IMG/VR virus record: IMGVR_UViG_3300022305_001387
Coordinates: 1 to 64,000 of that record
Origin: a virus
Taxonomy: Duplodnaviria; Heunggongvirae; Uroviricota; Caudoviricetes
Length of the DNA: 64,000 nt
Strand: one strand, 5' to 3'
The translations under genes and the position numbers were made by a program. Below, one piece after another: positions 1 to 31,379 of this stretch. Under the pieces are notes generated by a model that was given only the letters and a program-made list of their open reading frames with translations, had not been told where the DNA came from and did no database searches. The first letter of the stretch is position 1, and each line of letters opens with the position of its first letter.

Positions 1-183
1 TTGTATAATAATGTAACTAATCTATATGATATTATATCTGAATCTGATTTTGGAATATATCAATTAGGAAATGTTATTTTAGACATTAAAGAATTAAAAG
101 AATCTACTTCATCATTCAAAGTAGAAAACCCACCATTTGACATGAATTTATTAACGATAGAATAATATTTATATAAAAAGAAA

Positions 184-486
184 ATGGAAGCAGCAAGACC
201 AAAAATAAATGTAAAGATAGCAGGAAAAAATCTTGGGCTATTATTTGATGTTAATGATCATGAAACAAAGAAAGGCATTAAGTTGCATTTTGTGTTAGAT
301 GAAAACTTTGATGATGTTAGAGACAAGCAAGCACTCGCATCGAAAATATCTACAGCTTTGCAAAGAAAATTCGGCCAAGCAGGAATTGTAATAGATTACG
401 ATGAAAGATCTCCATACGAAAATGCAATATCATACATAGTACCTCTACAATCAATATCAGAGATTCTTATAAAAGCATTAAAATAA
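184..486 (+). CDS. hypothetical protein (100 aa)
   Basis: ATG ORF in track; A-rich upstream; part of co-directional plus-strand array. Confidence 0.5.
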   Translation: MEAARPKINVKIAGKNLGLLFDVNDHETKKGIKLHFVLDENFDDVRDKQALASKISTALQRKFGQAGIVIDYDERSPYENAISYIVPLQSISEILIKALK

Positions 487-503
487 TAAATAAAAAATAA
501 GTT

Positions 504-857
504 GTGGCAAGAAGAAAAACGATAAGAGCTTTATTCGAAGACATCAATAATCTAACATCAGAAGATATAATAAAATCTCAAGCTCTAAAACAATTACTTA
601 AAGTACAAGTGCCTGTTTGCATATTAGATGCTCATAATACTAAGAAACAATATGCAAGTGTATTTGAAATAAATGAAACTGAAAATTACGTAGACATACA
701 TAGAAGAGATTGGGTTCAAGCTTTAGAGACATGTATATTATGGTATCTTGAAACTGAAGAATATGAGAAATGCAGTAAGATACGAATGATCATTGAAGAA
801 ATTCAAAAGAAACCGAAGACAAAGATTAATGTTAAAACAGAACAAAATGGCGAATGA
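504..857 (+). CDS. hypothetical protein (117 aa)
   Basis: ATG ORF in track, co-directional. Confidence 0.5.
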   Translation: MARRKTIRALFEDINNLTSEDIIKSQALKQLLKVQVPVCILDAHNTKKQYASVFEINETENYVDIHRRDWVQALETCILWYLETEEYEKCSKIRMIIEEIQKKPKTKINVKTEQNGE

Positions 858-1248
858 TTATAAGAATGTTCAAATAGCAGTCGAAGAACTTTTAAATACT
901 AAAACAGTGATTAGAAGAAAAAAGAAAAGCGAACAGAATAAAAAGAAAGAATTATTTATTCAAGCTATAAACAATATAGAAACTGGAATAATAAGAACTA
1001 ATATAGCTTTTGCTGATTTCGGAATTGACTATTCTAATTACGATGAGGCGTATCATATTGCTATAGACTCCCTTATTATACTTGCATTTGGTAAAGATGC
1101 CGCAGAGCTAATTGGGTTCTATCTTTGGGACAGAGTAAATCCAGATGGCTCAATAAATCCAGTACTCGATGAAGATGATAATGAAATATTACTTAAAGAT
1201 GTCCATGAATTATGGGATCTATTATGTAAATTGAATCCACAACTTTAA
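847..1248 (+). CDS. hypothetical protein
   Basis: Track ORF starts at 793; internal ATG at 847 gives an ATGGCGAATGA start/stop overlap with the upstream gene, typical of this array. Confidence 0.45.
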   Translation: MANDYKNVQIAVEELLNTKTVIRRKKKSEQNKKKELFIQAINNIETGIIRTNIAFADFGIDYSNYDEAYHIAIDSLIILAFGKDAAELIGFYLWDRVNPDGSINPVLDEDDNEILLKDVHELWDLLCKLNPQL

Positions 1249-1249
1249 T

Positions 1250-1951
1250 ATGCCTAAAGAGTTTCGTTATTTTGGATATGACTTCACAGAAGAAGATGTT
1301 CGCAGAGCTATGGCTGCGACTAGAAGTAATGCTGAAGCCGCAAGATACTTAAAAGTGGGAATCACCACATACAAAAAATACGCAAAGAAATATATTGACA
1401 TTCTCACAGGAAAAAATCTATGGTATCTTCATATGAATACCTCTTCTCGAGGTATACCAAAGAAATGGAATACTGGAGAATTAAAAGGAGATCTTGATAA
1501 GATGCTAACTGAGAAACAACACAATAGTCCAAAAAGATTGGCTGTGTTAAAAGCTCTACTTATGAAGGACGGCAGATTAGGATACTGCTGTCATGCTTGT
1601 GGCTTCAGCGAAAGAAGATTAACAGACATGAAGCTACCTTTGATAATATCATTCAAGAATGGACACAGAAATGATTGGAGAATAGATAATTTAAAATGGG
1701 TATGTTACAATTGTGCATTCGTACTTGGATTAGATTACTTCTCAAATAGAATGATAAGAGACATGGAATCGTTTACAGTACATACACCAGAAAAAAATGA
1801 AGAGATAAAAAAATTCTATGATCTCGATGAATTCTATATGCAACATTTATCAAAGCTTGGACTAGACGACAAAGGCGATATAATACAAAAAGATACTCCA
1901 CCCCCGCCTGAACATGATGATGCTGACGATCTTATAGACATAATCAATTAA
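1250..1951 (+). CDS. putative HNH-type endonuclease with N-terminal HTH-like region
   Basis: Cys/His pattern CCHAC...HRNDWRIDNLKWVCYNC resembles the HNH/zinc-finger nuclease motif; N-terminus AEAARYLKVGITTYKKYAK is HTH-like. Confidence 0.45.
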   Translation: MPKEFRYFGYDFTEEDVRRAMAATRSNAEAARYLKVGITTYKKYAKKYIDILTGKNLWYLHMNTSSRGIPKKWNTGELKGDLDKMLTEKQHNSPKRLAVLKALLMKDGRLGYCCHACGFSERRLTDMKLPLIISFKNGHRNDWRIDNLKWVCYNCAFVLGLDYFSNRMIRDMESFTVHTPEKNEEIKKFYDLDEFYMQHLSKLGLDDKGDIIQKDTPPPPEHDDADDLIDIIN

Positions 1952-1954
1952 TTA

Positions 1955-2182
1955 TACATGATGATTTTTAATCAATCATAACTATATAATATCCAATTGA
2001 AAACAACGCATTGGTAGTCAATAAGTCATGAGTTAATAATAATTTACATATGTAAAGCATTGGTTCTCCCCGAAATATTTTTGAAAATAGTTGCGAAATA
2101 ATTTTACCATGTCAACGGATAGGGGTACTTTTACACTAATCGGCCGATATTGGTTAGATATTATAAAAAAAATTAATAAGTT
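1955..2182 (+). promoter_or_regulatory. conserved intergenic promoter/5'UTR module, copy A
   Basis: Contains TGTAAAGCATTGGTTCTCCCCGAAATATTTTTGAAAATAGTTGC...AATTTTACCATGTC, shared with copies at 4.9, 9.1 and (partially) 31.3 kb; TTTG / TAnnTTT-like Bacteroidota promoter elements. Confidence 0.5.
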
Positions 2183-3262
2183 ATGGCATTATCAAAACGC
2201 AGTTTGCAACAAGCAAAGCAAGTATTGAAACAGATCTTAGAATCAGATGTAGATGTTATCGTAACACGCGCTACGTTAGACATTAAAATTGAAATTGTAA
2301 AATTCCCATGGCTCAAATCCAATCACGATCGCAATCCTAAAAGACAAACAATCTATGTAAGCAAACAATACGATCCAATTCGTTATTGGATGGTGACAAC
2401 AGGCTTTCTCAAACAAGAATATGATCAAAACAAATATTGGTACTATGTAAACAAATCTGGAATTAGACGCTTTTTAGAGACAGGCATAATTCCGCAATTG
2501 AATATATCAACTAAACGAAACGAATATATGACAAAAAAAGAAAGAACTTTACAACATGTTGAAGCGCATAACAATGAAATGCATTACACCGACATTATCA
2601 AGTTCGTCTATGAATTGAATAATGGCAAAGGCACATTCGATCCTATAGAGAATCGTGGTTATTATTCAAGTGCATTTCGTAAGAATGCTACATATCGAAA
2701 TGGCATGAGAATCCCAGACGGACACTTTGTAAAAGATAATCGTAAAGGCTATTTGTTTAAATTGCCTAATGGTCTTTGGGCTGTTTGTCGTCCAGGTGGT
2801 AAAAAGAAAGAAGAAACAAAAATTAATATAGATCGATTCCTTACTGATGCTGAATACAATCGTATGTGTAATGCATTGGCAGTGCATAGCATAACATCTG
2901 ATCAACTCGATAATCTTGCAACCAAATATTGGTACAAAGGAGATGGTGATGTAGTGTCTTGTTATAATTGGGCATACAATGATCTTCTACCTCAAAACGA
3001 AATATCGGAAACTGTTAAAGATCTCTACAAAGAATTAGATAGAATTGCAGACGAGATGATTACAGAAAATAAAGCTCAAGAGAAAAAATACATGATAGTA
3101 TGGAAAACAGATAGCGATCATGATATTGTAGAAGGCATATTCTCAGAACAACAAGTAAAGAACTTTTTCGAAGATAGAAATACTAATGCGTTCTATGTAG
3201 TTGAGATTGCAAAGATGGTAGATATAGAAAAGAAAATCACTACGACTATTTCAATAAAGTAA
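2183..3262 (+). CDS. hypothetical protein (359 aa)
   Basis: Long ATG ORF directly after module A and an AAGTTATG start context. Confidence 0.6.
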   Translation: MALSKRSLQQAKQVLKQILESDVDVIVTRATLDIKIEIVKFPWLKSNHDRNPKRQTIYVSKQYDPIRYWMVTTGFLKQEYDQNKYWYYVNKSGIRRFLETGIIPQLNISTKRNEYMTKKERTLQHVEAHNNEMHYTDIIKFVYELNNGKGTFDPIENRGYYSSAFRKNATYRNGMRIPDGHFVKDNRKGYLFKLPNGLWAVCRPGGKKKEETKINIDRFLTDAEYNRMCNALAVHSITSDQLDNLATKYWYKGDGDVVSCYNWAYNDLLPQNEISETVKDLYKELDRIADEMITENKAQEKKYMIVWKTDSDHDIVEGIFSEQQVKNFFEDRNTNAFYVVEIAKMVDIEKKITTTISIK

Positions 3263-3296
3263 TCTAATCATTATAACATAATTAAAATAATAACAT

Positions 3297-3482
3297 ATGA
3301 AACAGCAAACTACTAAGTGTTCATTAGTGAGTTACATTAAAGAATTCAATGCGTGGTGTGAAATGTTTAAAGTCGGCACCATGGTAAAATTCAGAGAAGA
3401 GAAAAGAATGTATTATCCCGGAGAGTTTGATACTGAAAAATTTAAAAAAATGGTCGCATCAAAAAAAGAACTAGTCAAATGA
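3297..3482 (+). CDS. hypothetical protein (61 aa)
   Basis: ORF; ATGA overlap with the next gene. Confidence 0.45.
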   Translation: MKQQTTKCSLVSYIKEFNAWCEMFKVGTMVKFREEKRMYYPGEFDTEKFKKMVASKKELVK

Positions 3483-3871
3483 AAAATAAATTAACGCATC
3501 ATGACGCAAAAAGAATTTTGCAATGGTGCATGGATACATATGGAAAAAGCAAATGCAATGGTAATTTCCCAGCCATAGAATTCAAAAAGCCAGATCATAG
3601 TCAGCAAGACTATGCTGGCTACTATGATGAGGACGAAGAACTAATATTTGTTAACAAAGATCTGAATACAACCATTGAAGAATTAGCTAAAACTATTATC
3701 CACGAATATACTCATTATGTTAAGCATCCAATGAAAGATTATTATACTTTGGCACGGTATTTGAAGCATGATAGTAATCCGATGGAGATCGAAGCATCAA
3801 AGATAGAGAAGCGCGACTATAAGAAATGTTTAAATGAGATAAAAAATCGATGCAAAGGCCAAAAAAATTGA
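3479..3871 (+). CDS. putative HExxH zinc-metallopeptidase-like protein
   Basis: Motif TIIHEYTHYVKH (HExxH); 130 aa. Confidence 0.4.
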   Translation: MKNKLTHHDAKRILQWCMDTYGKSKCNGNFPAIEFKKPDHSQQDYAGYYDEDEELIFVNKDLNTTIEELAKTIIHEYTHYVKHPMKDYYTLARYLKHDSNPMEIEASKIEKRDYKKCLNEIKNRCKGQKN

Positions 3872-3908
3872 TTGCAAAGCAAAATTAATAAAAGGAAAAG
3901 AATATTTA

Positions 3909-4127
3909 TTGTATATGCTAACGCAAGAAAAAATAAATAGGTTGGCAGAAATTGCAATTCCTGATAAGGTTCATCCATATCTACACATAAACTGTCAGGA
4001 AGCATGGGTAAGTGTAGTTGCAAACCTAATAAAGGAAAAGCAAATCCAACCAAAAAATTACAATCTGTTATTGCTTGTTAAACATTGGGAGATAGTGCTT
4101 TTAAATTATTACAGTACCCAAAACTAA
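3909..4127 (+). CDS. hypothetical protein (72 aa)
   Basis: ORF in track. Confidence 0.4.
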   Translation: MYMLTQEKINRLAEIAIPDKVHPYLHINCQEAWVSVVANLIKEKQIQPKNYNLLLLVKHWEIVLLNYYSTQN

Positions 4128-4132
4128 CTCAA

Positions 4133-4447
4133 ATGAACCACCTACAGATTTTAATTCCCAAAATGAATGACGTTATGCTTCAATACGGGATTCTCGGAAT
4201 ACTATCTTTTTTTCTTGGCTATTTTGCATGGCATACTTATCAATCAGTATCAAAGAAAAACGATGAAGAATACAAGAGAATGGTCACTCGTAATGAGAAA
4301 CTCGAATCTGATGTTGAAAAACTAAGAAGCGAAATGATGGACGTTATAGTAGAAGAGAGAGATAGAATGGCAAGTCTTGTTAGTGCAAATACAACTGCAC
4401 TAGTAGAATTGAGAAAAACTATTGTTGATTATCTACTTGAACACTAA
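4133..4447 (+). CDS. membrane-anchored coiled-coil protein
   Basis: Start moved to ATG 4133 just after the stop of the upstream gene (track ORF starts at 4085); hydrophobic segment GILGILSFFLGYFAW followed by a charged helical region. Confidence 0.45.
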   Translation: MNHLQILIPKMNDVMLQYGILGILSFFLGYFAWHTYQSVSKKNDEEYKRMVTRNEKLESDVEKLRSEMMDVIVEERDRMASLVSANTTALVELRKTIVDYLLEH

Positions 4448-4480
4448 AATATTATTCACGTAATCCTATCTTATGAGACT

Positions 4481-4762
4481 ATGCAAAATAGATTTACACT
4501 ACTCACTAAGATGGCGGACCGTTTATTGAAGGCAAGCAATAAGATCGAAGCCTTAAATAAATCGCGTGAACGATCAGATAAGATAAAGAAACTTCACGAA
4601 TCAATTTCTGAAAGATACAAATTCATAGTCACTAGACATGAAAGCCTTATCGATATAGAATGCGATGTGAAGTTTCTCAAACTTATAGAAAAGACATTAT
4701 CTCCTACATCGAGTCAAGAGAATAAATTAGATGCTCTTTTTAAGAAGTACAACATCAAATGA
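4481..4762 (+). CDS. hypothetical protein (93 aa)
   Basis: ORF in track. Confidence 0.45.
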   Translation: MQNRFTLLTKMADRLLKASNKIEALNKSRERSDKIKKLHESISERYKFIVTRHESLIDIECDVKFLKLIEKTLSPTSSQENKLDALFKKYNIK

Positions 4763-4764
4763 AT

Positions 4765-5024
4765 ACGACTGTTGACGCACCAGAAGCTCACCATCTCAGC
4801 ATATCTATACGCCTTATACATATATAGCCCCCTCCCCCTATCATAACTGATTGATTATCAATAGAGCAAACAAATATAACTTTGTTTAATATGTAATTGA
4901 TTGGTTCTCCCTGAAGTATTTTTAAAAAAAGTTACTAAAAATTTTACCATGTCGCGGGAACGCGGTAATTTTACCCTATTCGGCCAACGATAGGCTATCA
5001 AATTATAAAAAAAAATAATAAGTT
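4765..5024 (+). promoter_or_regulatory. conserved intergenic promoter/5'UTR module, copy B (includes C-tract element)
   Basis: CCTTATACATATATAGCCCCCTCCCCCTA at 4812-4840, then TTGGTTCTCCCTGAAGTATTTTT...AATTTTACCATGTCGCGGG...TTCGGCC, matching copies A and C. Confidence 0.5.
4812..4840. repeat. C-tract element CCTTATACATA.ATAGCCCC..CCCC (copy 1 of 2)
   Basis: Near-identical to 9008-9036; CCCCCTCCCCC runs in an AT-rich genome. Confidence 0.7.
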
Positions 5025-5810
5025 ATGACAAAATTGAATTACAAAAATGCTGCTCAAGCCAAACGCGAAACTGGATTATCTTACATTGGAGCTGTTAACT
5101 CAAGCGCTAAGATCTTAAAAAACGAAAAGTATAATGAGCTTACTTACATTATCTATCTCGCACCCGCCAACCTAAGCGGATATGAAGTGTGTCCGATGCG
5201 TACAGACGAATGTACACACGCATGTTTATTTGGTAGTGGCCAAGTTATCATGGATAAAACTAATCGTATTGTTGAATCGCGTATCAAAAAGACACAAATG
5301 TTTTTCACTGATCGTGAGTACTTTATGTCGTGGGTAGTAAAAGAGATTGAACAAGCTAAAGCAAAAGCTGAGAAGAAAGATATGAAATTCTCTGTACGTT
5401 TGAATGGTACATCAGATCTCGAACCAACACTATTCAAATTAAATAACAAAACACTATTTGAAATATTTCCAGACGTACAGTTCTACGACTATACTAAAGT
5501 GCCTAAACGTTTTAGATTGCTGCAAACATATAGTAACTACGATCTAACGTTTAGTTATTCTGGACACAATTGGTCTGCATGTGAAGATATATTAGATAGC
5601 AAATCTGGTCGTGTAGCAGTGGTATTCGAAAAGAATTTACCTGAAACTTACAAAGGTTATAAGGTAATCGACGGCGATGCATATGATATGCGATACGTAG
5701 ACGACAAGAGTGTAATTGTTGGATTGAAATTTAAACGCGTTAAGAATAAAGTAGAAAAGACAAACAACGCATTCATCGTAGCGATAGACGATATTAATAG
5801 AAATAAATAA
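5025..5810 (+). CDS. hypothetical protein with Cys cluster (261 aa)
   Basis: Long ORF after module B; CPMRTDECTHAC motif; no confident family assignment. Confidence 0.6.
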   Translation: MTKLNYKNAAQAKRETGLSYIGAVNSSAKILKNEKYNELTYIIYLAPANLSGYEVCPMRTDECTHACLFGSGQVIMDKTNRIVESRIKKTQMFFTDREYFMSWVVKEIEQAKAKAEKKDMKFSVRLNGTSDLEPTLFKLNNKTLFEIFPDVQFYDYTKVPKRFRLLQTYSNYDLTFSYSGHNWSACEDILDSKSGRVAVVFEKNLPETYKGYKVIDGDAYDMRYVDDKSVIVGLKFKRVKNKVEKTNNAFIVAIDDINRNK

Positions 5811-5834
5811 TTAATTACAATAAAAATAAAAGTT

Positions 5835-6095
5835 ATGACTAAGAAAGAAATTAAAAATGAAATTAACAAAGCGGTGTACATATATGCCGAATCATTAGGT
5901 TACGATATGTCAGACGATAATGACGGATCATGCGTAACATTCTCCAAACCCGATAGAAAAGATGCTTACGATTGTATCGAATACAGTCGTTCGTATCACG
6001 AAACGTACGTTGTAAATTGGTGCAGCAATGAATTAAAATCAGACGCAGATATAATCAACGAATTTGCAAAACAACAACAATTAAATTATCAATAA
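5835..6095 (+). CDS. hypothetical protein (86 aa)
   Basis: ORF preceded by AATAAAAATAAAAGTTATG. Confidence 0.5.
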   Translation: MTKKEIKNEINKAVYIYAESLGYDMSDDNDGSCVTFSKPDRKDAYDCIEYSRSYHETYVVNWCSNELKSDADIINEFAKQQQLNYQ

Positions 6096-6105
6096 AATAA
6101 GAGTT

Positions 6106-6351
6106 ATGAAATACATACTGACAACTAATAAAGATATTTACGAAGATTGTTATGGCTCTAAGGCGCTTAGACACAAAAAAGGTGCTAAAGTATCAATGAG
6201 CGAAAAGTACTTCAACGAATTAAAACAAAGTGGTACAGTTGAATTAATGTCAGGCTTCGGTGAATATATATCTACTGCTAAATACGCACTATCAGACTTC
6301 GAATCAGAAGTAACTGTCGAAAAACAAATTAATCAAAAAATAAAACTGTAA
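6106..6351 (+). CDS. hypothetical protein (81 aa)
   Basis: ORF preceded by AATAAGAGTTATG. Confidence 0.5.
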   Translation: MKYILTTNKDIYEDCYGSKALRHKKGAKVSMSEKYFNELKQSGTVELMSGFGEYISTAKYALSDFESEVTVEKQINQKIKL

Positions 6352-6357
6352 TAATTT

Positions 6358-6618
6358 ATGAACAAAGCTTTAATTACCACAGCATTTCAATTGTATGTAG
6401 ACACAGTTCCTATGGAAACAATGTCAGCAGATCATCCAGAATTTCACGATCTGTATTCCAAAGAGTGTCAACTATTCAATCTTCTCAGACAAATGGATTG
6501 GCAAGAATTAGAAGATTATAAATACAAAGTTAGAATCTATAATATCGATCATGGCATTTCAAACGAAAACAAGTGGTCTAAAGAAGATCTATATGAAGAC
6601 GAAGATCAAAATTATTAA
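6358..6618 (+). CDS. hypothetical protein (86 aa)
   Basis: ORF in track. Confidence 0.5.
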   Translation: MNKALITTAFQLYVDTVPMETMSADHPEFHDLYSKECQLFNLLRQMDWQELEDYKYKVRIYNIDHGISNENKWSKEDLYEDEDQNY

Positions 6619-6637
6619 TCAATAAAAAATAAAAGTT

Positions 6638-6807
6638 ATGAAGTTTCAAGAAAAAGGCAGCACTGCCAAAAAACATTTTCAAATTAGTTTAATCAAATCT
6701 ATTATTCGTATCTTCGCATGCGTATATCTTTGTTATGGAGATTATGTAGGAGCAGGTATTGTACTCGGTATTGCTGAGCTGCTTGGTATCTATGAAGAAA
6801 TTGCTTA
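6638..6807 (+). CDS. small hydrophobic protein (56 aa)
   Basis: Not in track (<60 aa); preceded by AAAAATAAAAGTTATG; hydrophobic stretch IIRIFACVYLCYGDYVGAGIVLGIAELLGI. Confidence 0.35.
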
Positions 6808-6835
6808 ATCAAATAATCAATAAAAAATAAAAGTT

Positions 6836-7084
6836 ATGAAAGTAAAATTAGAAATGTGCAAGTGCATCAAATGCGGTAATGATATGCCGCTCCTTCGTAA
6901 GATAAAATATGGTTATAAGAGTTGCATAAACTGTTCCACTGTTCAACCGGTTGGTGGAGTGCAAATCGCTAATCATAAAACAGGAAACGAGATACAAATC
7001 ATGCCAATGGAATTGGCGAATAGAATGAATACTCTAGCTTCAAGACAAGGGTACGGAGTTTGTTCTGGAATGAAACATAGTTAA
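6836..7084 (+). CDS. zinc-ribbon-like protein, paralog of 12501..12716
   Basis: CKCIKCGN...CINCS and shared ..HKTGNEIQIM.. with 12501 (..HKTADSIQII..). Confidence 0.5.
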   Translation: MKVKLEMCKCIKCGNDMPLLRKIKYGYKSCINCSTVQPVGGVQIANHKTGNEIQIMPMELANRMNTLASRQGYGVCSGMKHS

Positions 7085-7103
7085 TTAATAAAAAATAAAA
7101 GTT

Positions 7104-7358
7104 ATGAACGAAAAAGAAAAAACAATATTGACTGCTCTTGCAGTTTTGATAGGCTTGGCACTACTTTCAAGTATGACATCATGTATGTCTTCGAAAGACA
7201 TCTCAGGCAGAGATAGTTTAATTTCAGGTGCTAACCACAAATGCTCAATAAAAAGATCAATGAGATATTCCACATGGGAATATGCATCGCCTAATGTGCA
7301 GCTCATGATATCGCATAACAAATCTAATATGATTTTTGAAATAAATAAAAAGAAGTAA
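7104..7358 (+). CDS. putative lipoprotein / membrane protein
   Basis: N-terminus ILTALAVLIGLALLSSMTSC looks like a signal peptide with a lipobox-like Cys. Confidence 0.45.
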   Translation: MNEKEKTILTALAVLIGLALLSSMTSCMSSKDISGRDSLISGANHKCSIKRSMRYSTWEYASPNVQLMISHNKSNMIFEINKKK

Positions 7359-7360
7359 TT

Positions 7361-7474
7361 ATGTTTTGGATAGCATTCGCAATAGTTATTTTCGGTGCAT
7401 TAGTTTTAGAAACCGTAAAAATAATTTGTAAAACCATTTTCGATATCATTAAATTTATAAAAGAAAAGAGTTAA
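7361..7474 (+). CDS. small hydrophobic peptide (37 aa)
   Basis: MFWIAFAIVIFGALVLE...; fills the gap before 7477. Confidence 0.3.
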   Translation: MFWIAFAIVIFGALVLETVKIICKTIFDIIKFIKEKS

Positions 7475-7476
7475 TA

Positions 7477-8232
7477 ATGAAGAAAAAAAATAAAACCGTA
7501 GTTCTTGGAGACATTCATGGAAGATCAGTGTGGAAACTCATATATGAATTAGAGAAGCCTGATAAAATGATATTCATAGGTGATTACTTCGATTCCTTCG
7601 ATATCAAAGGCGTAGATCAATTAAACAACTTTCAAGACATAATCAAATTCAAAGAGAGCGGAGTGTGTGAAGTGATTATGTTAATAGGCAATCACGATCA
7701 TCATTATTTCCCAGAAATTGGAGATACAGGTACAAGTGGCTATCAACATTTATTTGCGCCATCAATTCAATATGTTGTAGATGAAAATAGACATCATTTG
7801 CAAATAGCGTATCAAATAGATGATATGTTATTTACTCATGCTGGTGTTAGTAGTGTTTTCATGGATCAAGTATTTGGAAAAGACGGATGGAAAGTAGAGA
7901 ACATTGCTATTGATCTAAATGAAATGTTCAAATACAAACCAAAAACATTTATATTCGGAGAATTTGCGCTCATGAATAAGATGTCTTATCTAGATCCTCA
8001 TGGTGATAGCGTAGATCAATCGCCTATTTGGATCAGACCTAAATCTTTAATGAGAGCAAATAAAGATACGCTTCGCAAAAAAGTTATACAAGTAGTAGGC
8101 CACACTCAACAGCACGAAATAGATAAGAAAGGCGCTGCTACAGGAGGAAGATATTATTACATAGATACTTTAGGAACAAGCGGCGAATACATGATAATAA
8201 ATGATGGAAAAATAAGTTTCAATAAAGTATAA
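7477..8232 (+). CDS. calcineurin-like metallophosphoesterase (Ser/Thr protein phosphatase family)
   Basis: Signature motifs GDIHG, GDYFD, GNHD in canonical order. Confidence 0.8.
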   Translation: MKKKNKTVVLGDIHGRSVWKLIYELEKPDKMIFIGDYFDSFDIKGVDQLNNFQDIIKFKESGVCEVIMLIGNHDHHYFPEIGDTGTSGYQHLFAPSIQYVVDENRHHLQIAYQIDDMLFTHAGVSSVFMDQVFGKDGWKVENIAIDLNEMFKYKPKTFIFGEFALMNKMSYLDPHGDSVDQSPIWIRPKSLMRANKDTLRKKVIQVVGHTQQHEIDKKGAATGGRYYYIDTLGTSGEYMIINDGKISFNKV

Positions 8233-8279
8233 ACTTTGGCATAAAATTTGCATTATAATAGATACAAAACCCACCTACT

Positions 8280-8409
8280 ATGAAAAAGCTACTTTATATT
8301 ATGATGACTCACATTACATGTTCATTTACTGGCCATGAATTGAAAACAGTTTACACATACAATGGAAGTACAAATTATAAGTGTGCTAAGTGCAATGAAC
8401 ACCAATAAG
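8280..8409 (+). CDS. small hypothetical protein (42 aa)
   Basis: Short ORF with CAKC motif; weak. Confidence 0.25.
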
Positions 8410-8496
8410 AAAAAACTTTTAACACTTATAAATTAGTTTTCTATAATCCAAATATTAGCTATATATTAGTCTTATAATTAAAAACAAATAAACGTT

Positions 8497-8775
8497 ATGA
8501 ACAAGAACACAAAACAAAGCTCAAAGAGCGTATCAAGCAATCGTCCAACATCTTACACAAAGTTGACGTACATTCAAAAAGTAAGTCGTATTAATCGTAA
8601 ACTTCGCACAGGAGACATCAGCCGTATTGCTGAAGCAACTGGCTACTCTACAACTCACGTATCAGACGTAGTTAGTGGTAAGTATTTCAACGACACCATC
8701 GTTAATCGTATCTACGATTTGACTCGTAATCGTGTATCAAACGCGGTTAAGTTGACGAAGATGGAGAATGCCTAA
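8497..8775 (+). CDS. putative HTH DNA-binding protein
   Basis: GDISRIAEATGYSTTHVSDVVSG resembles a helix-turn-helix. Confidence 0.45.
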   Translation: MNKNTKQSSKSVSSNRPTSYTKLTYIQKVSRINRKLRTGDISRIAEATGYSTTHVSDVVSGKYFNDTIVNRIYDLTRNRVSNAVKLTKMENA

Positions 8776-8819
8776 TAACAAAACATACTAACTGCTAGCG
8801 CATCGCAGCGCGGCACACA

Positions 8820-8883
8820 AGATCAGTCACCGGATTATGCTTTTCTAAGCTATCTTAAGACTGATCTTTTTTTATGTGCTCAC
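8820..8883 (+). terminator. possible hairpin terminator
   Basis: AGATCAGTC...GACTGATCT 9-bp stem (large loop) followed by TTTTTTT. Confidence 0.35.
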
Positions 8884-8989
8884 TTATACATGATAAAAAA
8901 TTCATATACACAACTGATTGATCGTAACAAATTTCAGCATATAATTGTTACGGAAATAATAGCTGCCAGATCAGTCAGGAAGCTCATGG

Positions 8990-9235
8990 CCAAAGCTTCG
9001 GATCTTACCTTATACATACATAGCCCCTGTCCCCTGTACGTACCCGCCTAGGCCCACGGCAACTGATTAAACACCAATAACTTATATATTCACTGGAAAT
9101 ATATGTGTAAAGCGTTGGTTCTCCCTGATATTTTTTTGAAAATAATTGCTTAAATATTTTTTTATGTCAAAAAATCGTCGTAGATTTCCTAAATAACAAC
9201 AAACAGACTACCTAACAATTAAAAAAAAACATAAT
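8990..9235 (+). promoter_or_regulatory. conserved intergenic promoter/5'UTR module, copy C
   Basis: CCTTATACATACATAGCCCCTGTCCCCTG, then TGTAAAGCGTTGGTTCTCCCTGATATTTTTTTGAAAATAATTGC...TGTCAAAAAATCGTCG...AAAAAAAACATAATATG. Confidence 0.5.
9008..9045. repeat. C-tract element (copy 2 of 2)
   Basis: CCTTATACATACATAGCCCCTGTCCCCTGTACGTACCCGCC; matches 4812-4840. Confidence 0.7.
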
Positions 9236-9592
9236 ATGAACAAAGCAACAACTTACAACGACGCTATCTGGAACACTTCATCTCAAGAGCAAACTGTTTA
9301 CATAGCTAAAGCTGCTACAAAGCTTACTGAAAAAGCATCTAGTGATACACGTGTAGAATATGTAGACTTCTTCGGTAAGAAGCAAATCATTGCATGTCGT
9401 ACTAACAAGCAATTAAAAGAAGCTATGCAATTCTTATCAATGTTGAAACGTGAATCTAATACAATCAATCAGATCTGCGCACAGTACAACGTTAAGAATG
9501 GTAAGTTTCAAAACTTATCAAAGCTTAAGCAACAATTAAGAGACGCTGGTCTTACTGCTTCTGCAGTTAATCGTTTAGCTGTTATTAAGTAA
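9236..9592 (+). CDS. hypothetical protein (118 aa)
   Basis: ORF after module C. Confidence 0.55.
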   Translation: MNKATTYNDAIWNTSSQEQTVYIAKAATKLTEKASSDTRVEYVDFFGKKQIIACRTNKQLKEAMQFLSMLKRESNTINQICAQYNVKNGKFQNLSKLKQQLRDAGLTASAVNRLAVIK

Positions 9593-9644
9593 TATCTATC
9601 TCAATTCAAATCAAATCATAAAAAAAATAAACAAAATAAAAGTT

Positions 9645-10073
9645 ATGAAAAAATTAGAAATTATCAATTCAGAAAAAATCAATCAAGTAGAATTTATTTC
9701 AGATCGTAAAGGCGAATACAGAGCTATCGTTAAAGTGCAAGCGGGCTTCATGACAGTTGTAGACGATTTTGGTATTCAATGTAATTGGGAAAAACCACAA
9801 TGGAATTCTGCTATCGATGTATTTCGCAACTTTAAGAAAGGAGCATTACAAACTATCCAGTTTAAAGCTAAAGGTACTGATTCATGGTTGACTATATTCG
9901 CCAAATCTGGTAACAAAGTAAAGCTTATGGACTATCAGTTGTTTAAAGATATGGAAGTTGGTGACATCAATCAAAACTGGTCTAATACCAATTTATACAG
10001 TCAAAAAAATTATGGCTTATGTAACGCAAAAACATGGGCTGATAAAGCATTCGTTGTAAACAAGTCTAAATAA
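9645..10073 (+). CDS. hypothetical protein (142 aa)
   Basis: ORF preceded by AAAATAAAAGTTATG. Confidence 0.55.
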   Translation: MKKLEIINSEKINQVEFISDRKGEYRAIVKVQAGFMTVVDDFGIQCNWEKPQWNSAIDVFRNFKKGALQTIQFKAKGTDSWLTIFAKSGNKVKLMDYQLFKDMEVGDINQNWSNTNLYSQKNYGLCNAKTWADKAFVVNKSK

Positions 10074-10100
10074 TTAATCAATAAAAATAAAATTAAAGTT

Positions 10101-10310
10101 ATGCAAAAAAACAATCCTTACATCGACAGTAACAACATTGACAGATCACAAGAGATCGAAGCGATGTTTCAACCAACGTTAGAAGACATTAAAAATGATC
10201 CTGAGTTTTATGCTGAATTGGTTAACGATCTTATGTATCACGTTAAATATGGTATAGGCATTACACAGATTATGAAAATGGCAATGGATACATTAGAAAT
10301 GCCAATATAA
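10101..10310 (+). CDS. hypothetical protein (69 aa)
   Basis: ORF preceded by AAATTAAAGTTATG. Confidence 0.5.
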   Translation: MQKNNPYIDSNNIDRSQEIEAMFQPTLEDIKNDPEFYAELVNDLMYHVKYGIGITQIMKMAMDTLEMPI

Positions 10311-10366
10311 TTAAATTTACTAAACAATCAAATCAAATAATCAATAATAAATTAAAATATATAACT

Positions 10367-10588
10367 ATGTTTAACGATTTTGACTACTCAGAATTTGACG
10401 AGCAACTTGATAATGATTACTCATTACCAATTGAAGAAAACACGAAAGCTCTTAAAGCGGCAAAGAAAGACATTGAGAAAGTTATTGTACAAGATCCAGA
10501 AGAAGAGATCGAAATAAATAATGATGACTTCGCCAAAGATTGGATAGAAATTACAGAAGATGATGGCGATGACGATTTAGATGACTAA
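10367..10588 (+). CDS. acidic hypothetical protein (73 aa)
   Basis: ORF; D/E-rich. Confidence 0.5.
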   Translation: MFNDFDYSEFDEQLDNDYSLPIEENTKALKAAKKDIEKVIVQDPEEEIEINNDDFAKDWIEITEDDGDDDLDD

Positions 10589-10652
10589 TAAAAACACTAA
10601 TATGAATCACTATCAAATCACCACTTTTATCAAAACACAAAAAAATAAAGTT

Positions 10653-11033
10653 ATGACACAAGATTACGATCAGACACTAACAAAACAAATGGCAAAAGAA
10701 GTAGTTGGCGATGGACAAACACCAAATCTATGGTTCGTTACATCGGGTCCTTATGTGGCTGTTCATGATGGAGATATATCGTACGACTTTGAATTGATCG
10801 AAGGATATAATTCAGATAAAGATACTCATACATATGGTCCTTACACAAGTTACGAAGCGGCTTTAAGATGTTACAACAAAATAGAATTAAGCTTTGATTA
10901 TGGAGTTGGACAAGCATTCATTGAAGATAGAGAATGCGGTACAGTTACAGAGAAATGGTTGGTTAAAAGAGTGAGAACAGAATATATAGAAAGCGAATAC
11001 GATAATTCAAAAAGATTCTACAAAAATAATTAA
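10653..11033 (+). CDS. hypothetical protein
   Basis: Track ORF starts at 10581; the conserved AAAAAATAAAGTTATG context sits at the internal ATG 10653. Confidence 0.5.
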   Translation: MTQDYDQTLTKQMAKEVVGDGQTPNLWFVTSGPYVAVHDGDISYDFELIEGYNSDKDTHTYGPYTSYEAALRCYNKIELSFDYGVGQAFIEDRECGTVTEKWLVKRVRTEYIESEYDNSKRFYKNN

Positions 11034-11051
11034 TCACATAAAAAAATACAC

Positions 11052-11195
11052 ATGAAATTAAGTAAATGCTGTAATGCAGAAGTAATATTTGTAATGGTAG
11101 ATGATCATGTTGGACACGGCATACATGAAGAGACAGAGTGCTCTAATTGTAGCGAACTTTATCCAGAAGTATATGATGACGAAGAGGAAGACTAG
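11052..11195 (+). CDS. small Cys-rich (zinc-ribbon-like) acidic protein (47 aa)
   Basis: CC..(20)..CSNC; flanked by the direct repeat AATTAATCACATAAAAAAA (11029 and 11213); preferred over the antisense track ORF 11058..11249. Confidence 0.35.
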   Translation: MKLSKCCNAEVIFVMVDDHVGHGIHEETECSNCSELYPEVYDDEEED

Positions 11196-11240
11196 ACAAC
11201 AATAATAAAAATAATTAATCACATAAAAAAAACAAAAGTT

Positions 11241-11531
11241 ATGAAACAAAAAAAATTAACATTCCAACAAGTGGTAACTCGCTTAGAAAAAGCTGAGATT
11301 CCATGCACAGTTAAACGTTTCGAATACGACGACGAAATAACATACTCAATTGAATTTGGCTTTAATTGGCCAGAAGAGTTGCTATCTGAGGTCGATAAAG
11401 CATTCGATGCATACGGCGATAAGGTGCCTCATTATATAGAGTTTTGTGCTAGTTCTGATGGTGGTGAAATGACTGCTAAGAAGATGATCGCTGGTGGTCC
11501 TAAAGACTACATCGGCTACAACAAATGGTAA
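11241..11531 (+). CDS. hypothetical protein (96 aa)
   Basis: ORF preceded by AACAAAAGTTATG. Confidence 0.5.
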   Translation: MKQKKLTFQQVVTRLEKAEIPCTVKRFEYDDEITYSIEFGFNWPEELLSEVDKAFDAYGDKVPHYIEFCASSDGGEMTAKKMIAGGPKDYIGYNKW

Positions 11532-11565
11532 ACAAAAACAAATTAATAAATTAAAAACAAAAGTT

Positions 11566-11925
11566 ATGAAAGCATTATTGATCGACTCAAAAAACAAAGT
11601 AGTAAAACAAATCGAAATCGGTGAACACTTCACTGAAATTTCAAAAGCAATAGATTGCGAAACATTTTCAGCTCCTCACATTTTAGAGAATGAAGACACA
11701 CTATATTGTGACGACGAAGGATTGCTGAAAGGTCCTCAACATTTCTTCTTACTCGATACTTATCCTCAGCCAATTGCAGGAAATGGTTTAATTTTAGGCT
11801 GCGACGATGAAGGAGATAGCATCGATGTTAAAACTACTCTCGATGAATTAATTAGTAGAATAACATTCATGAATATTGACGATGCATACAATTGGTCGTT
11901 TAATCAATCTTATCAATTTAACTAA
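11566..11925 (+). CDS. hypothetical protein
   Basis: Track ORF starts at 11494; conserved AAACAAAAGTTATG at internal ATG 11566. Confidence 0.5.
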   Translation: MKALLIDSKNKVVKQIEIGEHFTEISKAIDCETFSAPHILENEDTLYCDDEGLLKGPQHFFLLDTYPQPIAGNGLILGCDDEGDSIDVKTTLDELISRITFMNIDDAYNWSFNQSYQFN

Positions 11926-11941
11926 AATAAAAAAAATTATA

Positions 11942-12184
11942 ATGGCGCAAATAAAAAAAACAACTAGAATTGCAACTCAAAAAACAAATCGTCAAGTATT
12001 AACTAAAGCGATTAAAGATCTAAGTGATATTGATTTGGTATTTTTACGTGAACGCATACTCAGATCATGCGATGAAGTTCTAAGTAATAAAGAACAGATA
12101 CTAAAAGACATGCAATTTAGTTTTATAAAACCAGATTTATTTATCGAGTCTATGCAAAACATAAAAGATAAAATAGATTTCTAA
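11942..12184 (+). CDS. hypothetical protein
   Basis: Internal ATG 11942 after the upstream stop; A-rich context. Confidence 0.45.
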   Translation: MAQIKKTTRIATQKTNRQVLTKAIKDLSDIDLVFLRERILRSCDEVLSNKEQILKDMQFSFIKPDLFIESMQNIKDKIDF

Positions 12185-12252
12185 CTTGAAGTTTATATTT
12201 CTCGATTCAAAAATAATCATTTAATTTTAATACTAATCAAAAAATACAGTTT

Positions 12253-12480
12253 ATGATAATTGACAACACACTTACAAAAGAGGAATTAGAATTCTGTTAC
12301 TATAAAAGAGGTAACGCTGGTGGATTCAAAACAAAATTGATTGAAACAATATTCGCAGCTGATGATGGAAATAGAGCAAAACTAGCTCAAGCATTTCCAG
12401 ATCTTGTAGAAGTAGTTGTTAGGTATGGTAATGAGAGAGGCTATTGGAAAGATTTAGAAACTAGATTCTCAAATTTATAA
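12253..12480 (+). CDS. hypothetical protein (75 aa)
   Basis: ORF preceded by ATACAGTTTATG. Confidence 0.5.
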   Translation: MIIDNTLTKEELEFCYYKRGNAGGFKTKLIETIFAADDGNRAKLAQAFPDLVEVVVRYGNERGYWKDLETRFSNL

Positions 12481-12500
12481 ACATAAAAAAAATAAAAGTT

Positions 12501-12716
12501 ATGCAAATAGAAAGAAAATGTAAAGTATGTCAAGAAGTTATACACCCACTTCGAGTGAAAATGGGATATTCAACTACATGTGTTAAACATTCAACTGCTG
12601 AGAGATACACAGGAGTTGTTGTAGCAGATCATAAAACAGCAGACTCTATTCAAATCATTAAAGATCCAGAAGTTGGTAGAAAATTGATGGAACTTAGTAA
12701 TGTTTATGATCATTAA
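12501..12716 (+). CDS. zinc-ribbon-like protein, paralog of 6836..7084
   Basis: CKVCQ...C.KHS; shared HKT..IQI motif. Confidence 0.5.
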   Translation: MQIERKCKVCQEVIHPLRVKMGYSTTCVKHSTAERYTGVVVADHKTADSIQIIKDPEVGRKLMELSNVYDH

Positions 12717-14210: not shown

Positions 14211-14658
14211 GGATGGATCAATTACGATATACGAATAACACAGGAGCTGTCCAATCTATTAAATTGGGGCATCCCAATAGGCAAACACAGGCATATGAAA
14301 ATAGATAGACCAATGAGCTCCCATTTCACGCAATTTAGTCAGGCAATGGATTGGAAATCAATCAGTTATAACTCATTGGAATTCAATAACTTATATATTA
14401 TCGTGTCCAATCATGGACATATCTTTCACCAAAAAATGAAGCGCATTGAAAAAAGATAAGAAAGGCTTCTACGTGGCAAATTCATTTCAGCAACTCGCTG
14501 AATTGTACAAATCGATCAACGAAAACCAACAGCAAAACCCGAATGCAAAAAAGGAACAGAAGATCAGAACACGAGAAGCAATGAAGCAAAGAAAACAAGA
14601 CTCGTAAGAATAATTTTTCTAAATAGAAAATATAGTTTAATTTAAAATAAAACAACTC

Positions 14659-20249: not shown

Positions 20250-21035
20250 ATGGCATTTCGTTTCGGAAATCAAATAATAACAGATGGTTTAGTACTCTAT
20301 CTTGATGCAGGAAATCCAGTTTCATATCCTCGTAGTGGTACTACATGGAGAGATTTATCAAATAATGGCAATAATTTCACTTTAACTAATTCTCCTATTT
20401 ATCAAAATTCAGCTATAAGATTTAATCTTGATGGAACAATAAATCAATACGCTACGTGTGTTAATAATACATTTGGTAATTTTGATACTCAAAATTTTAC
20501 AATAGAATATGTTGCAAATTTTCCATCCACGAATGGAGGATTCTCAGCAATATTGAGTAATAATCATGGAGCTTATCATGCTACAGGTTCAAATACAGTA
20601 GCCGGATATAGTTTAGGAATAATTAATCAAACATATTTTCAAGATAATGGATATAGAGCTAATAGTAATTCAGAACAATTTGGAGCTAATGCCACAAATA
20701 TGCCATTAAAAGACCAAATAACACATCAAGTTTATACTATTCAAAGAGGACCATCTAATGTAGACACAGTAACTGGTAAACTTTATAAAACTGGATCTTT
20801 GACTACAACAATAACATATGATATGGGACCGACTAGATACGCAACTACTGGTCTTAATCCTCTTGGAGATAGTAAAATATCTAATGTAATATATCCATTA
20901 ACTATGATGAAAGCCGCAGCAAATAACTATTATGCAAGTGGTAGCGTATACCAAATAAGAGTTTATAATAGAGTGCTATCTTCAACGGAAATTACACAAA
21001 ATTATATTATAACAAAAAATAGATTTAGAATATAA
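20250..21035 (+). CDS. LamG/concanavalin-A-like lectin-domain protein
   Basis: LVLYLDAGNPVSYPRSGTTWRDLSNNGNNFTLTNSPIY ... IRVYNRVLSSTEITQNY, typical of LamG-type domains. Confidence 0.55.
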   Translation: MAFRFGNQIITDGLVLYLDAGNPVSYPRSGTTWRDLSNNGNNFTLTNSPIYQNSAIRFNLDGTINQYATCVNNTFGNFDTQNFTIEYVANFPSTNGGFSAILSNNHGAYHATGSNTVAGYSLGIINQTYFQDNGYRANSNSEQFGANATNMPLKDQITHQVYTIQRGPSNVDTVTGKLYKTGSLTTTITYDMGPTRYATTGLNPLGDSKISNVIYPLTMMKAAANNYYASGSVYQIRVYNRVLSSTEITQNYIITKNRFRI

Positions 21036-21036
21036 T

Positions 21037-31020: not shown

Positions 31021-31260
31021 TCAAATCGACACAAGCTCCACCGAAATCGGAAGACACACTAAATATAAACAATCACGACCACACCAACAGCAATAACCCC
31101 TATGCATAGACTGCCGCTTCTTCCCCGTGGCATACACCACCCACCTCCCCACATGGGCATCCCCATATTCTTGTATATCCGTATTAAGGATAAACATAAT
31201 ACACAACGCGTTGATGAGTCGGACACAGAATCCAAGCCTGTCCCTAACTCGTTGGTTGCC
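31021..31260. other. non-coding C/A-rich strand-asymmetric region
   Basis: No convincing ORF; CCACCCACCTCCCCACATGGGCATCCCC C-tracts; precedes promoter module D. Confidence 0.3.
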
Positions 31261-31261
31261 A

Positions 31262-31379
31262 ATAAAAACTTTTGAAAATACTTGTATAATTATTTTTTAG
31301 TGTCAAAATGTTGTCGTATATTACATATATAATCAATCAAGCAGCTGCAAACCAGCTCAAAAACTAAAAAAAACATAAT
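31262..31379 (+). promoter_or_regulatory. conserved promoter/5'UTR module, copy D (partial)
   Basis: TTTTGAAAATACTTG..TATTTTTTAGTGTCAAAATGTTGTCG...AAAAAAAACATAATATG, parallel to copy C. Confidence 0.45.

Follow-up and report, generated by a model that had tools for sequence, protein, structure and literature searches.

Repeated intergenic cassettes resembling Bacteroidota promoters, with upstream palindromic sites, in an uncultured Flavobacterium-type myovirus

Introduction

The promoter(early) stem-loop elements (PeSLs) of T4-type phages combine a strong host-type promoter, an AT-rich upstream stretch, and a stem-loop in about 100 bp of conserved sequence; recombination between PeSLs deletes or inserts small open reading frames (ORFs), and experiments have demonstrated their functions in promotion, termination, and mini-circle formation (PMC2839356, PMC4122927). 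In the halovirus HF2, repeated intergenic blocks of 29-58 bp likewise proved to be promoters in reporter tests (PMC8707807). Here, we analyze a stretch of 64,000 nucleotides (positions 1 to 64,000 of the IMG/VR record IMGVR_UViG_3300022305_001387; hereafter, the window), in which an intergenic cassette of about 180 bases is repeated four times. With a probability that we put at roughly 0.6, each copy would be a composite of a host sigma-A promoter with an UP-like upstream element and of protein-binding sites located further upstream.

In Bacteroidota, the -7 box TAnnTTTG (TAHHTTTG) recognized by the primary sigma factor spans -12 to -5 and lies 4-5 nt from the start; in Flavobacterium, T-12, A-11, T-8, T-7, T-6, and G-5 of this box are nearly invariant, the -33 element is weak, and the promoters are AT-rich at -18 and -28 (PMC6847099). 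The TTTG at -33 sits about 19-21 nt 5' of the -7 box (PMC6847099, PMC9723704). The mean leader was 33 nt in one study (PMC6847099), and the published means range from 33 to 52 nt (PMC6847099, PMC9723704). The promoters of Flavobacteriia phages are essentially uncharted, no description of promoters of this phage group was found in the literature searched, and strong, portable Bacteroidota promoters are wanted as genetic tools. Two other kinds of element serve for comparison. UP elements of the Escherichia coli rrn P1 type are A/T-rich sequences at -60 to -40 that are contacted by the C-terminal domains of the alpha subunits. The phi29 p4 sites near -82 and the P1 C1 operators are dispersed phage operators upstream of promoters.

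Results and Discussion

Copies and Placement of the Cassette

Coordinates are given as positions in the window, and offsets are relative to the anchor (position 0, the first T of TTGGTT) or, where stated, to the predicted start. The four copies are all on the + strand, with anchors at 2060, 4901, 9115, and 31252 (copies A, B, C, and D). They emerged in a repeat search as two families, namely D5 (88 nt at 2045, 4886, and 9100, with 64-75% identity) and D12, which joins 2079, 9134, and 31270. A profile built from the four copies and run against the 64 kb on both strands gave exactly four matches (E 6e-26 to 7e-20), and the next match had an E value of 1.6. The 11-mer TTGGTTCTCCC occurs exactly three times in the window, at 2060, 4901, and 9115, and TAANNNRTTGGTTNNC occurs four times against 0.09 expected, a count reached in none of 100 shuffles. 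The distance from the anchor to the start codon is 123 nt in copy A (ATG 2183), 124 nt in copy B (5025), 121 nt in copy C (9236), and 128 nt in copy D (31380). The non-coding gaps that harbor the copies measure 231 nt (A, 1952-2182), 262 nt (B, 4763-5024), 184 nt (C, 9052-9235), and about 360 nt (D, 31021-31379), and rank among the largest gene-free gaps of the window.

The first-pass annotation, made from the letters of the window, had placed repeated blocks upstream of 2183, 5025, 9236, and 31380, each after a gene-free gap; the repeat, profile, and gap data bear this out, and all of the sequences that it quoted were located. The limits of its conserved module (120-250 nt) have to be corrected: the shared unit begins about 55 nt 5' of the anchor and ends about 75 nt 3' of it, and the remaining stretch before the ATG differs with the type of gene. 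The copy before 31380, described as a variant, is a genuine member of the family that is more diverged than copies A-C. The following consensus anatomy was built from aligned copies, with offsets from the anchor.

About -57 to -35: dyad-symmetric site CAAC-NN-ATTG-N5-CCAA(T/A)-NN-
-13 to +15: proximal block TGTGTAAAGCG-TTGGTTCTCCC-TGAAG
+16 to +38: UP-like element TATTTTTGAAAATAGTTGCTAAA
+39 to +48: -33 zone TAATTTTTTT, with a T-run at +42 to +45
+49 to +65: variable 17-nt spacer, carrying the "ATGTC" of the first-pass annotation in about half of the copies
+66 to +74: predicted -7 box TAnnTTTAC

The TGTC box that had been called conserved is therefore a feature of about half of the copies and falls within the variable spacer. 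In the window, the features of the individual copies are as follows.

Copy A
2005..2027, + strand: distal palindromic operator-like site AACGCATTGGTAGTCAATAAGTC, one mismatch to AACNNRTTGNNNNNCAAYNNGTT; position kept in all related copies
2047..2075, + strand: proximal block CATATGTAAAGCATTGGTTCTCCCCGAAA, the left half of a palindromic site, including TTGGTTCTCCC
2076..2098, + strand: UP-like element TATTTTTGAAAATAGTTGCGAAA, about -62 to -40 from the predicted start, in register with Chryseobacterium and Cellulophaga phages and with Bacteroidota loci
2099..2108, + strand: -33 zone TAATTTTACC, with a T-run where host promoters carry TTTG
2126..2133, + strand: predicted -7 box TACTTTTA; predicted start about 2138-2139, leader 2138-2182

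Copy B
4778..4837, + strand: C-rich, G-poor tract (C 0.40, G 0.08), the third most C-rich + strand 60-mer
4845..4867, + strand: distal palindromic site AACTGATTGATTATCAATAGAGC
4888..4916, + strand: proximal block including TTGGTTCTCCC
4917..4948, + strand: UP-like element and -33 zone TATTTTTAAAAAAAGTTACTAAAAATTTTACC
4966..4973, + strand: predicted -7 box TAATTTTA; predicted start about 4978-4979, leader to 5024 with a CCTAT/ATAGG hairpin

Copy C
9004..9063, + strand: C-rich tract (C 0.42, G 0.15), the second most C-rich + strand 60-mer
9061..9083, + strand: distal palindromic site AACTGATTAAACACCAATAACTT, two mismatches to the 23-bp pattern
9102..9130, + strand: proximal block including TTGGTTCTCCC
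9131..9163, + strand: UP-like element and -33 zone TTTTTTTGAAAATAATTGCTTAAATATTTTTTT, with the host-promoter profile match and the blastn matches in Flavobacteriia phages
9181..9188, + strand: predicted -7 box TAGATTTC; predicted start about 9193-9194, leader to 9235

Copy D
31105..31164, + strand: C-rich tract (C 0.48, G 0.15), the most C-rich + strand 60-mer
31153-31166: small hairpin ATGGG/CCCAT, a terminator-like match
31205..31227, + strand: distal half-site AACGCGTTGATGAGTCGGACACA, of which the left half alone fits the motif
31246..31268, + strand: proximal site with a fully palindromic core AACTCGTTGGTTGCCAATAAAAA
31267..31299, + strand: UP-like element and -33 zone AACTTTTGAAAATACTTGTATAATTATTTTTTA
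31317..31324, + strand: degenerate -7 box TATATTAC; predicted start about 31329-31330, leader to 31379

Conservation in Related Phages

Relatives were sought among IMG/VR contigs with an exact-pattern scan, then with a less stringent pattern, and with the protein encoded 3' of copy D as a query. The exact-pattern scan yielded 15 more copies in seven contigs, and the later searches added L133, L134, L135, and L137. At least nine related contigs of uncultured phages carry the cassette, with more than 20 further copies at orthologous positions, so a module absent from relatives, the outcome against which the first-pass annotation had proposed a check, is not what we observe. Around the anchor, between about -15 and +65, the related copies can be aligned gaplessly. 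By orthology they form four types, namely A, B (upstream of a GP88-family gene), C, and D, and the same gene lies downstream of each type in every genome. None of the A-, B-, and C-type copies of eight genomes deviates from the 11-mer TTGGTTCTCCC. Paralogous types have -55 to +75 in common, and the sequence from about +75 to the ATG is type-specific and ends in an A-rich translation start region; a common 5' part with a gene-specific 3' part is what one expects of a promoter followed by a transcript.

Assignment of the Core Promoter

The cassette alone contains three TAnnTTT-like boxes, none of which has a canonical TTTG 19-21 nt upstream. The third was chosen as the -7 box because of its register in other phages and in host genomes. 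In a sensitive blastn search against phage genomes, copy C matched Chryseobacterium phage MA9V-1 (E 6e-7) and two Cellulophaga phage groups, in each case in unannotated intergenic DNA (L010, 1501-1555; L011, 1501-1532; L012, 1501-1530). MA9V-1 and the Cellulophaga phages phi4:1 and phiSM carry TTTT(G/A)AAAATAATTGCTTAAA and, exactly 26 nt on, a perfect TAnnTTTG just 5' of a gene. Counted 26 nt after GCTTAAA, the -7 boxes of the three groups are TATATTTG, TAAATTTG, and TATATTTG, and their register is that of the third box of the cassette. At the site of the cassette T-run, phi4:1 has a TTTG with a 20-nt spacer.

The pattern AAAATAnTTGCTnAA-N26-28-TAnnTTTG was then scanned against one genome per prokaryotic species and matched at least 120 loci (L013-L132). 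Among the matches listed, 99 were in Bacteroidota (Bacteroidales, Chitinophagales, Cytophagales, Sphingobacteriales, and Flavobacteriales) and 21 in other taxa. A TTTG that the pattern did not require was found in the -33 zone of 61 of these 99 Bacteroidota loci and of one of the 21 others, and it falls exactly at the position of the cassette -33 zone. The consensus of the listed loci, tt.tt.aAAAATAaTTGCT.AAAAATTTG...gTA.cTTTGcA, is also conserved outside the pattern; a tRNA gene starts 18-64 nt downstream at eight of these loci, and a 16S gene within 180-385 nt at four. When a profile of 36 of these host promoters was run over both strands of the window, its two best matches, both in register, were copy C (9131-9186, E 1e-6) and copy A (2075-2132, E 0.044).

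Most likely, +66 to +73 is the functional -7 box, the T-run at +42 to +45 occupies the -33 position, and the perfect TAnnTTTG at +16 to +23 is part of the UP-like upstream element. The blocks in which the first-pass annotation noted TTTG and TAnnTTT-like elements are in register with a Bacteroidota promoter architecture, and the perfect box has been re-assigned. Because 4-5 nt separate the box from the start (PMC6847099), the predicted starts are at about 2138, 4978, 9193, and 31329, approximately 78-79 nt past the anchor. The predicted leaders of 43-51 nt are within the published range, and the cassette is intergenic and co-oriented with the downstream gene. The predicted -7 box reads TAnnTTTA in 20 of the 22 copies, matching five of the six invariant positions; the exceptions are the window copies C (TAGATTTC) and D (TATATTAC). 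Relative to TATATTTAC in both of its orthologues (L133 and L134), the box of copy D has a 1-nt deletion, so this copy may be weakened. The strand shared with the genes, the fixed distance to them, the retention in relatives, and the register with Bacteroidota promoters together argue that the blocks are promoters, as had been proposed. We further infer that they may be early and strong ones.

Bacteroidota primary-sigma promoters, in particular those with T-run-GAAAATAATTGCTnAAA before tRNA and rRNA genes, have their upstream element, -33 zone, spacer, and -7 box in the same register as the predicted ones of the cassettes; in both, a C comes after the box, the predicted leaders are of normal length, and a host-derived profile recognizes copies C and A. 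The cassettes differ in having A (or C) at -5 and TTTT at -33 in every copy, and in the extra clade-specific sites further upstream. Several points weigh against our assignment. The nearly invariant G at -5 is absent from every copy, with A or C in its place. The -33 position is TTTT, not TTTG, and in the approximately six copies that have a TTTG, the spacer is 16 nt instead of 19-21 nt. Copies B and D were not among the matches of the host-promoter profile at E < 10. The pattern of the host scan itself demanded the upstream element and the -7 box, so the independent evidence from it lies in the unrequired positions and the taxonomic spread. Finally, many copies carry the perfect TAnnTTTG TATTTTTG at +16 to +23, which is itself a possible -7 box.

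If the promoter were formed by this upstream box, transcription would start at about +28/+29, and the conserved stretch from +30 to +75 would form the beginning of a roughly 95-nt leader, acting at the RNA level or through protein binding (for example, in antitermination or stability). The exact match of TATTTTTG to TAHHTTTG and the conservation of +24 to +74 between paralogues fit such an arrangement, but the T, A, and G of the box vary (TTTTTTTG, TATTTTTA, and ACTTTTG in copy D), and the G+C-rich DNA 5' of it does not resemble Flavobacterium promoters, with their AT-richness at -18 and -28. Moreover, T-run-G-AAAATA precedes a separate canonical -33/-7 pair both in host promoters and in the three phage groups, and the region from +24 to the ATG has no consensus RNA structure, excess folding energy, or Rfam match. 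We consider this arrangement decidedly unlikely and retain the third box as the -7 element. Two other pairings were superseded by the phage and host comparisons, namely TTTG (+20 to +23) as -33 with TAATTTTT (+39 to +46) as -7, which leaves a spacer of 15 nt, and TATTTTTG as -7 with TTGG as -33, with a spacer of 12 nt. In a scan for sigma-70 promoters, the counts were no higher than in shuffled sequence, with nothing notable in the cassettes; sigma-54 and extracytoplasmic function readings of the TTGC and CGTC motifs were judged by eye not to fit the required spacing and GG/GC dinucleotides.

The UP-Like Upstream Element

The cassette core is in register with a promoter order found across Bacteroidota, namely a T-rich/GAAAATAnTTGCTnAAA segment, a -33 TTTG zone, and TAnnTTTG 26-27 nt on. 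Directly 5' of a -33 TTTG, T-run-GAAAATAATTGCTnAAA occurs on Bacteroidota chromosomes, where some of the matches listed precede tRNA or 16S genes, and in at least three other groups of Flavobacteriia phages. The segment from +16 to +38 would accordingly belong to a type of upstream element common before Bacteroidota promoters, including those of stable RNAs. It lies about -62 to -40 from the predicted start, which matches the position of UP elements. It resembles the UP elements of E. coli rrn P1 in this position, in its A/T richness, and in the link to stable-RNA or strong promoters; in contrast, its consensus differs and holds a conserved TTGC, and contact with the alpha subunits is here a prediction. 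No description of the T-run-GAAAATAATTGCTnAAA element was found in the searchable literature, although it may be described elsewhere.

The Palindromic Sites

The core motif AACNNRTTGNNNNNCAA has seven exact matches in the window against 0.45 expected. The site reads alike on both strands as a 23-bp dyad, AAC-NN-RTTG-N5-CAAY-NN-GTT, an example of which is AACTCATTGGAATTCAATAACTT. Each cassette has a distal and a proximal site, whose centers are about 41-49 bp apart, at about -122 and -74 from the predicted start. The position of the distal site is conserved in relatives. In copy D and in L135, the proximal site forms a complete palindrome, and L135 has the same motif in both sites; in copies A-C, the proximal site is represented by a conserved left half, TAAAGCGTTGGTTCTCCC. 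Two further pairs, with one mismatch in each site, lie outside the cassettes.

14345-14367 and 14370-14392: tandem pair of the 23-bp palindromic site
51672-51694 and 51697-51719: tandem pair of the 23-bp palindromic site

The first pair is in a mostly non-coding stretch (14.2-14.66 kb), and its site at 14370-14392 has the same right flank, CAATAACTTATATATT, as the distal site of copy C. A search for relatives of the 14.9-kb gene, by which conservation of this pair could be followed, found none. The second pair lies where the convergent + and - gene blocks meet, and L140-L142 have kept it at the corresponding place, 3' of their orthologue of the 309-aa gene (window 50615-51544).

These sites look like operators for a dimeric DNA-binding protein. 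In common with the phi29 p4 and P1 C1 operators, they are symmetric, occur in several copies genome-wide, and in part lie just 5' of what would be the polymerase-binding region of early promoters; unlike those operators, they have no known binding protein, and some of them, at 14.35 and 51.7 kb, are without an evident promoter. Two findings are unfavorable to the operator part of our reading: no DNA-binding protein was seen among the ORFs scanned, and two pairs, one of them at a convergent junction, are located where no promoter is evident. Because of these two pairs, the sites may not be transcriptional operators.

Alternatively, the cassettes could be phage-specific promoters or regulatory sites, with the TTGGTTCTCCC block as key determinant, read by a phage sigma factor, an activator, or a modified polymerase, and with host-like elements that are insufficient on their own. 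This block is the most conserved part of the cassette and belongs to a palindromic-site family found elsewhere in the genome, and the -33 and -7 elements are systematically non-consensus (T for G at -33, A for G at -5). However, copy D and L135 alter the block (TTGGTTGCCAA and TTGGTTCCCAA) yet retain the host-like core, and its location about 63-90 nt 5' of the predicted start is the position of an activator or operator site, not of a core promoter. Moreover, the ORFs scanned in the window, which covers only part of the genome, yielded no sigma factor, RNA polymerase, or helix-turn-helix protein. A phage-specific promoter or site of this kind is unlikely in our estimation.

Proposed Organization of the Cassette

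In the organization that we favor, the cassette would be read by the host primary sigma factor, the sigma-A of Bacteroidota. From 5' to 3', a C-rich tract (in three of the four copies) would probably terminate the upstream transcription unit; the distal 23-bp palindromic site and the proximal related site or half-site with TTGGTTCTCCC would follow; then would come the A/T-rich UP-like element, T-run-GAAAATAnTTGCTnAAA, and the T-run at -33, the variable 17-nt spacer, the -7 box TAnnTTTA(C), and the start about 78-79 nt after the anchor; and a gene-specific, A-rich leader of 43-51 nt, mostly unstructured, would run into the start codon. RNA polymerase would start at the predicted sites, with its alpha subunits using the upstream element, and a dimeric DNA-binding protein on the sites near -74 and -122 may tune or shut off these promoters, which are non-consensus at -33 and -5.

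Repeated host-type promoter cassettes are a known kind of phage element, and what seems unusual here is the combination of an UP-like element of apparently phylum-wide occurrence, sub-consensus boxes, and dispersed palindromes. The A at -5, the T-run at -33, the two upstream copies of the palindromic site, and the C-rich tracts before three of the four copies set this clade apart. As a tentative and rather doubtful generalization, (a) T-run-GAAAATAATTGCTnAAA may be the phylum-wide Bacteroidota counterpart of the UP element, abutting the -33 box in tRNA, rRNA, and other strong promoters and copied by at least four phage groups, and (b) the present clade may have joined it to -33 and -7 boxes that fall short of the consensus and to two 23-bp palindromic sites which, recurring in tandem at two other loci, one of them a convergent gene junction, would define the regulon of a DNA-binding protein, from the phage or the host, by which early transcription is timed or shut off. 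If the predicted organization holds, the cassette would offer a ready, strong promoter about 140 bp long whose leader is defined, a candidate equivalent of the UP element for the unusual sigma factor of Bacteroidota, and a compact set of operator-like sites for tracing the regulator of early transcription in this phage group.

C-Rich Tracts and Leaders

The three most C-rich + strand 60-mers of the window (C 0.40-0.48; mean 0.154, standard deviation 0.054) are located directly 5' of copies D, C, and B, and copy A lacks such a tract. Compared with shuffled sequence, the folding of the tracts gave z values of +0.6 (B), +2.3 (C), and -3.0 (D), so those of B and C are not more structured; in some relatives, GGGG..CCCC hairpins are found at this position. 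It is a reasonable guess that the tracts are terminators, possibly Rho-dependent. A scan for intrinsic terminators around the cassettes gave counts no higher than in shuffled sequence, with none notable in the cassettes.

That the blocks might be regulated leaders, as the first-pass annotation put it, finds no backing in consensus structure, excess folding energy, or Rfam matches. RNAalifold returned no structure (0.0) for -15 to +80, +24 to the ATG, or -75 to +25, and the mean minimum free energy was within one standard deviation of that of shuffled sequence; Rfam at gathering thresholds reported tRNAs only. When leaders of single copies were folded, a hairpin appeared in the B-type leaders only.

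The same annotation had noted a potential upstream peptide, MS..RG.FTL.G, and one could suppose that the cassette encodes it as a short regulatory peptide controlling the downstream gene. An ORF initiated by ATG or GTG does run across the TAnnTTTAC box, with R-G/R-x-F-T-L, in copies A and B of the window and in L009+2186 and L008-2505. Nevertheless, at least seven copies lack the start codon (L001+2542, L001+5140, L002, L004-3492, L004-884, L005, and L008-6160), a stop follows after 1-3 codons in two others (L003 and L008-9308), and the remaining copies disagree in frame, length, and end point. The shared residues are the translation of the conserved nucleotides of the -7 box, and we give the peptide almost no credence.

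Near-identical A-rich start regions (AATAAAAAATAAAAGTTATG or AAAAAAGATTAATTATGA) also precede many small genes at 6607-12518 and 28767-35683 (repeat families D4, D6, D7, D13, and D14). They are Shine-Dalgarno-less translation starts typical of Bacteroidota, and, as short homologies, they could permit recombination.

Recombination and Comparison With Other Repeated Elements

Copy A of the window matches its orthologue in L008 up to +75, after which its leader is about 80% identical to the B-type leader. In the comparison of 2135-2182 with L008 9233-8919, copy A also lacks an ORF of 76 aa (MTKQILQQLKTL...) that lies between the cassette and the 359-aa gene and is present in L008, L004, L005, and L007. 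The chimeric leader and the missing small ORF support PeSL-like recombination at copy A, and the cassettes can serve homologous recombination because about 75 nt are shared between copies. Since the breakpoints of the other gene-order differences among relatives are not at cassettes, the earlier idea of recombination hot spots has one case in its favor.

Could the repeats then be mainly recombination or mobility cassettes, PeSL-like linkers or linkers resembling miniature inverted-repeat transposable elements, with no transcriptional role? The B-type leader of copy A, the 76-aa ORF lost relative to four relatives, and the varying gene content between cassettes would agree with this. Against it stand the orthologous positions in all relatives, the orientation with the genes, and the fixed distance to the start codon, as well as the rearrangement breakpoints outside the cassettes, and the in-register match to host promoters would be left unexplained. 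We regard this explanation as very improbable. A mobile-element reading was rejected, the copies being orthologous in position and orientation across all relatives.

As an analogy, the comparison with the T4 PeSLs made in the first-pass annotation is apt, both being composites of a host-type promoter (a predicted one in the cassettes) and an AT-rich upstream region. Both kinds of cassette are intergenic, measure about 100 bp, and recur where small ORFs without known function abound, both are associated with an element that should halt upstream transcription (a putative one in the cassettes), and both have shared sequence sufficient for homologous recombination of small ORFs, with one event here, at copy A. 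They are unlike in that there is no sequence relationship, that the grammar of the cassettes is the -33/-7 of Bacteroidota rather than the sigma-70 -35/-10, that there are only four cassettes in at least 64 kb against dozens of PeSLs, that a C-rich, largely unstructured tract takes the place of the constant stem-loop, and that two palindromic operator-like sites of this kind are not described for PeSLs. The cassettes would extend the PeSL idea, in which a regulatory cassette is also a recombination linker, to non-T4 phages and a host with another promoter grammar. With the HF2 repeats they share their nature as repeated intergenic blocks of a virus and, by prediction, the promoter function, and they differ in the archaeal host and promoter grammar, the shorter repeats, and the lack of described operator-like sites on the HF2 side.

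Genome Context and Neighboring Genes

The window has a G+C content of about 31%, and its genes are on the + strand as far as about 51.5 kb, after which they switch to the - strand. Its source is an uncultured myovirus, a Flavobacterium-type phage; the baseplate wedge protein is 45% identical to its counterpart in Flavobacterium phage vB_FspM_immuto. Megablast of window positions 1-12000 against phage genomes gave no match, and there is no close DNA relative among the sequenced phages. The genes identified downstream of the cassettes encode GP88 (PF17338), a metallophosphoesterase, DUF932, and DUF3846, with an HNH endonuclease upstream of copy A; the functions of the others were not recognized. 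The HNH endonuclease-like ORF (1250-1951; phrog_10822, E 1.4e-8) ends just 5' of copy A. Its region has about 70-73% identity in four relatives and, because of this conservation, is not a recent insertion.

The + strand gene block is closed by an intrinsic terminator of textbook form at 51571-51599 (GGGAGCT-CATGGT-AGCTCCC followed by TTTCTTTTT), which is kept in L141 and L142. A tRNA cluster occupies 37122-37795: ARAGORN called tRNA-Ile (anticodon aat, 37393-37482) and tRNA-Glu (37722-37795), and Rfam reported a third, long tRNA-like match at 37122-37227 (31.5 bits) that ARAGORN did not call. The 1649-aa ORF at 15299-20248 contains internal repeats (16298-19602), the adjacent genes at 20250-21035 and 21037-21750 have repeated 3' ends and starts (20955-21766), and a duplication spaced 966 nt is found on the - strand at 52388-53624; the internal repeats, the repeated gene ends, and the 966-nt duplication suggest paralogous tail-fibre-like genes.

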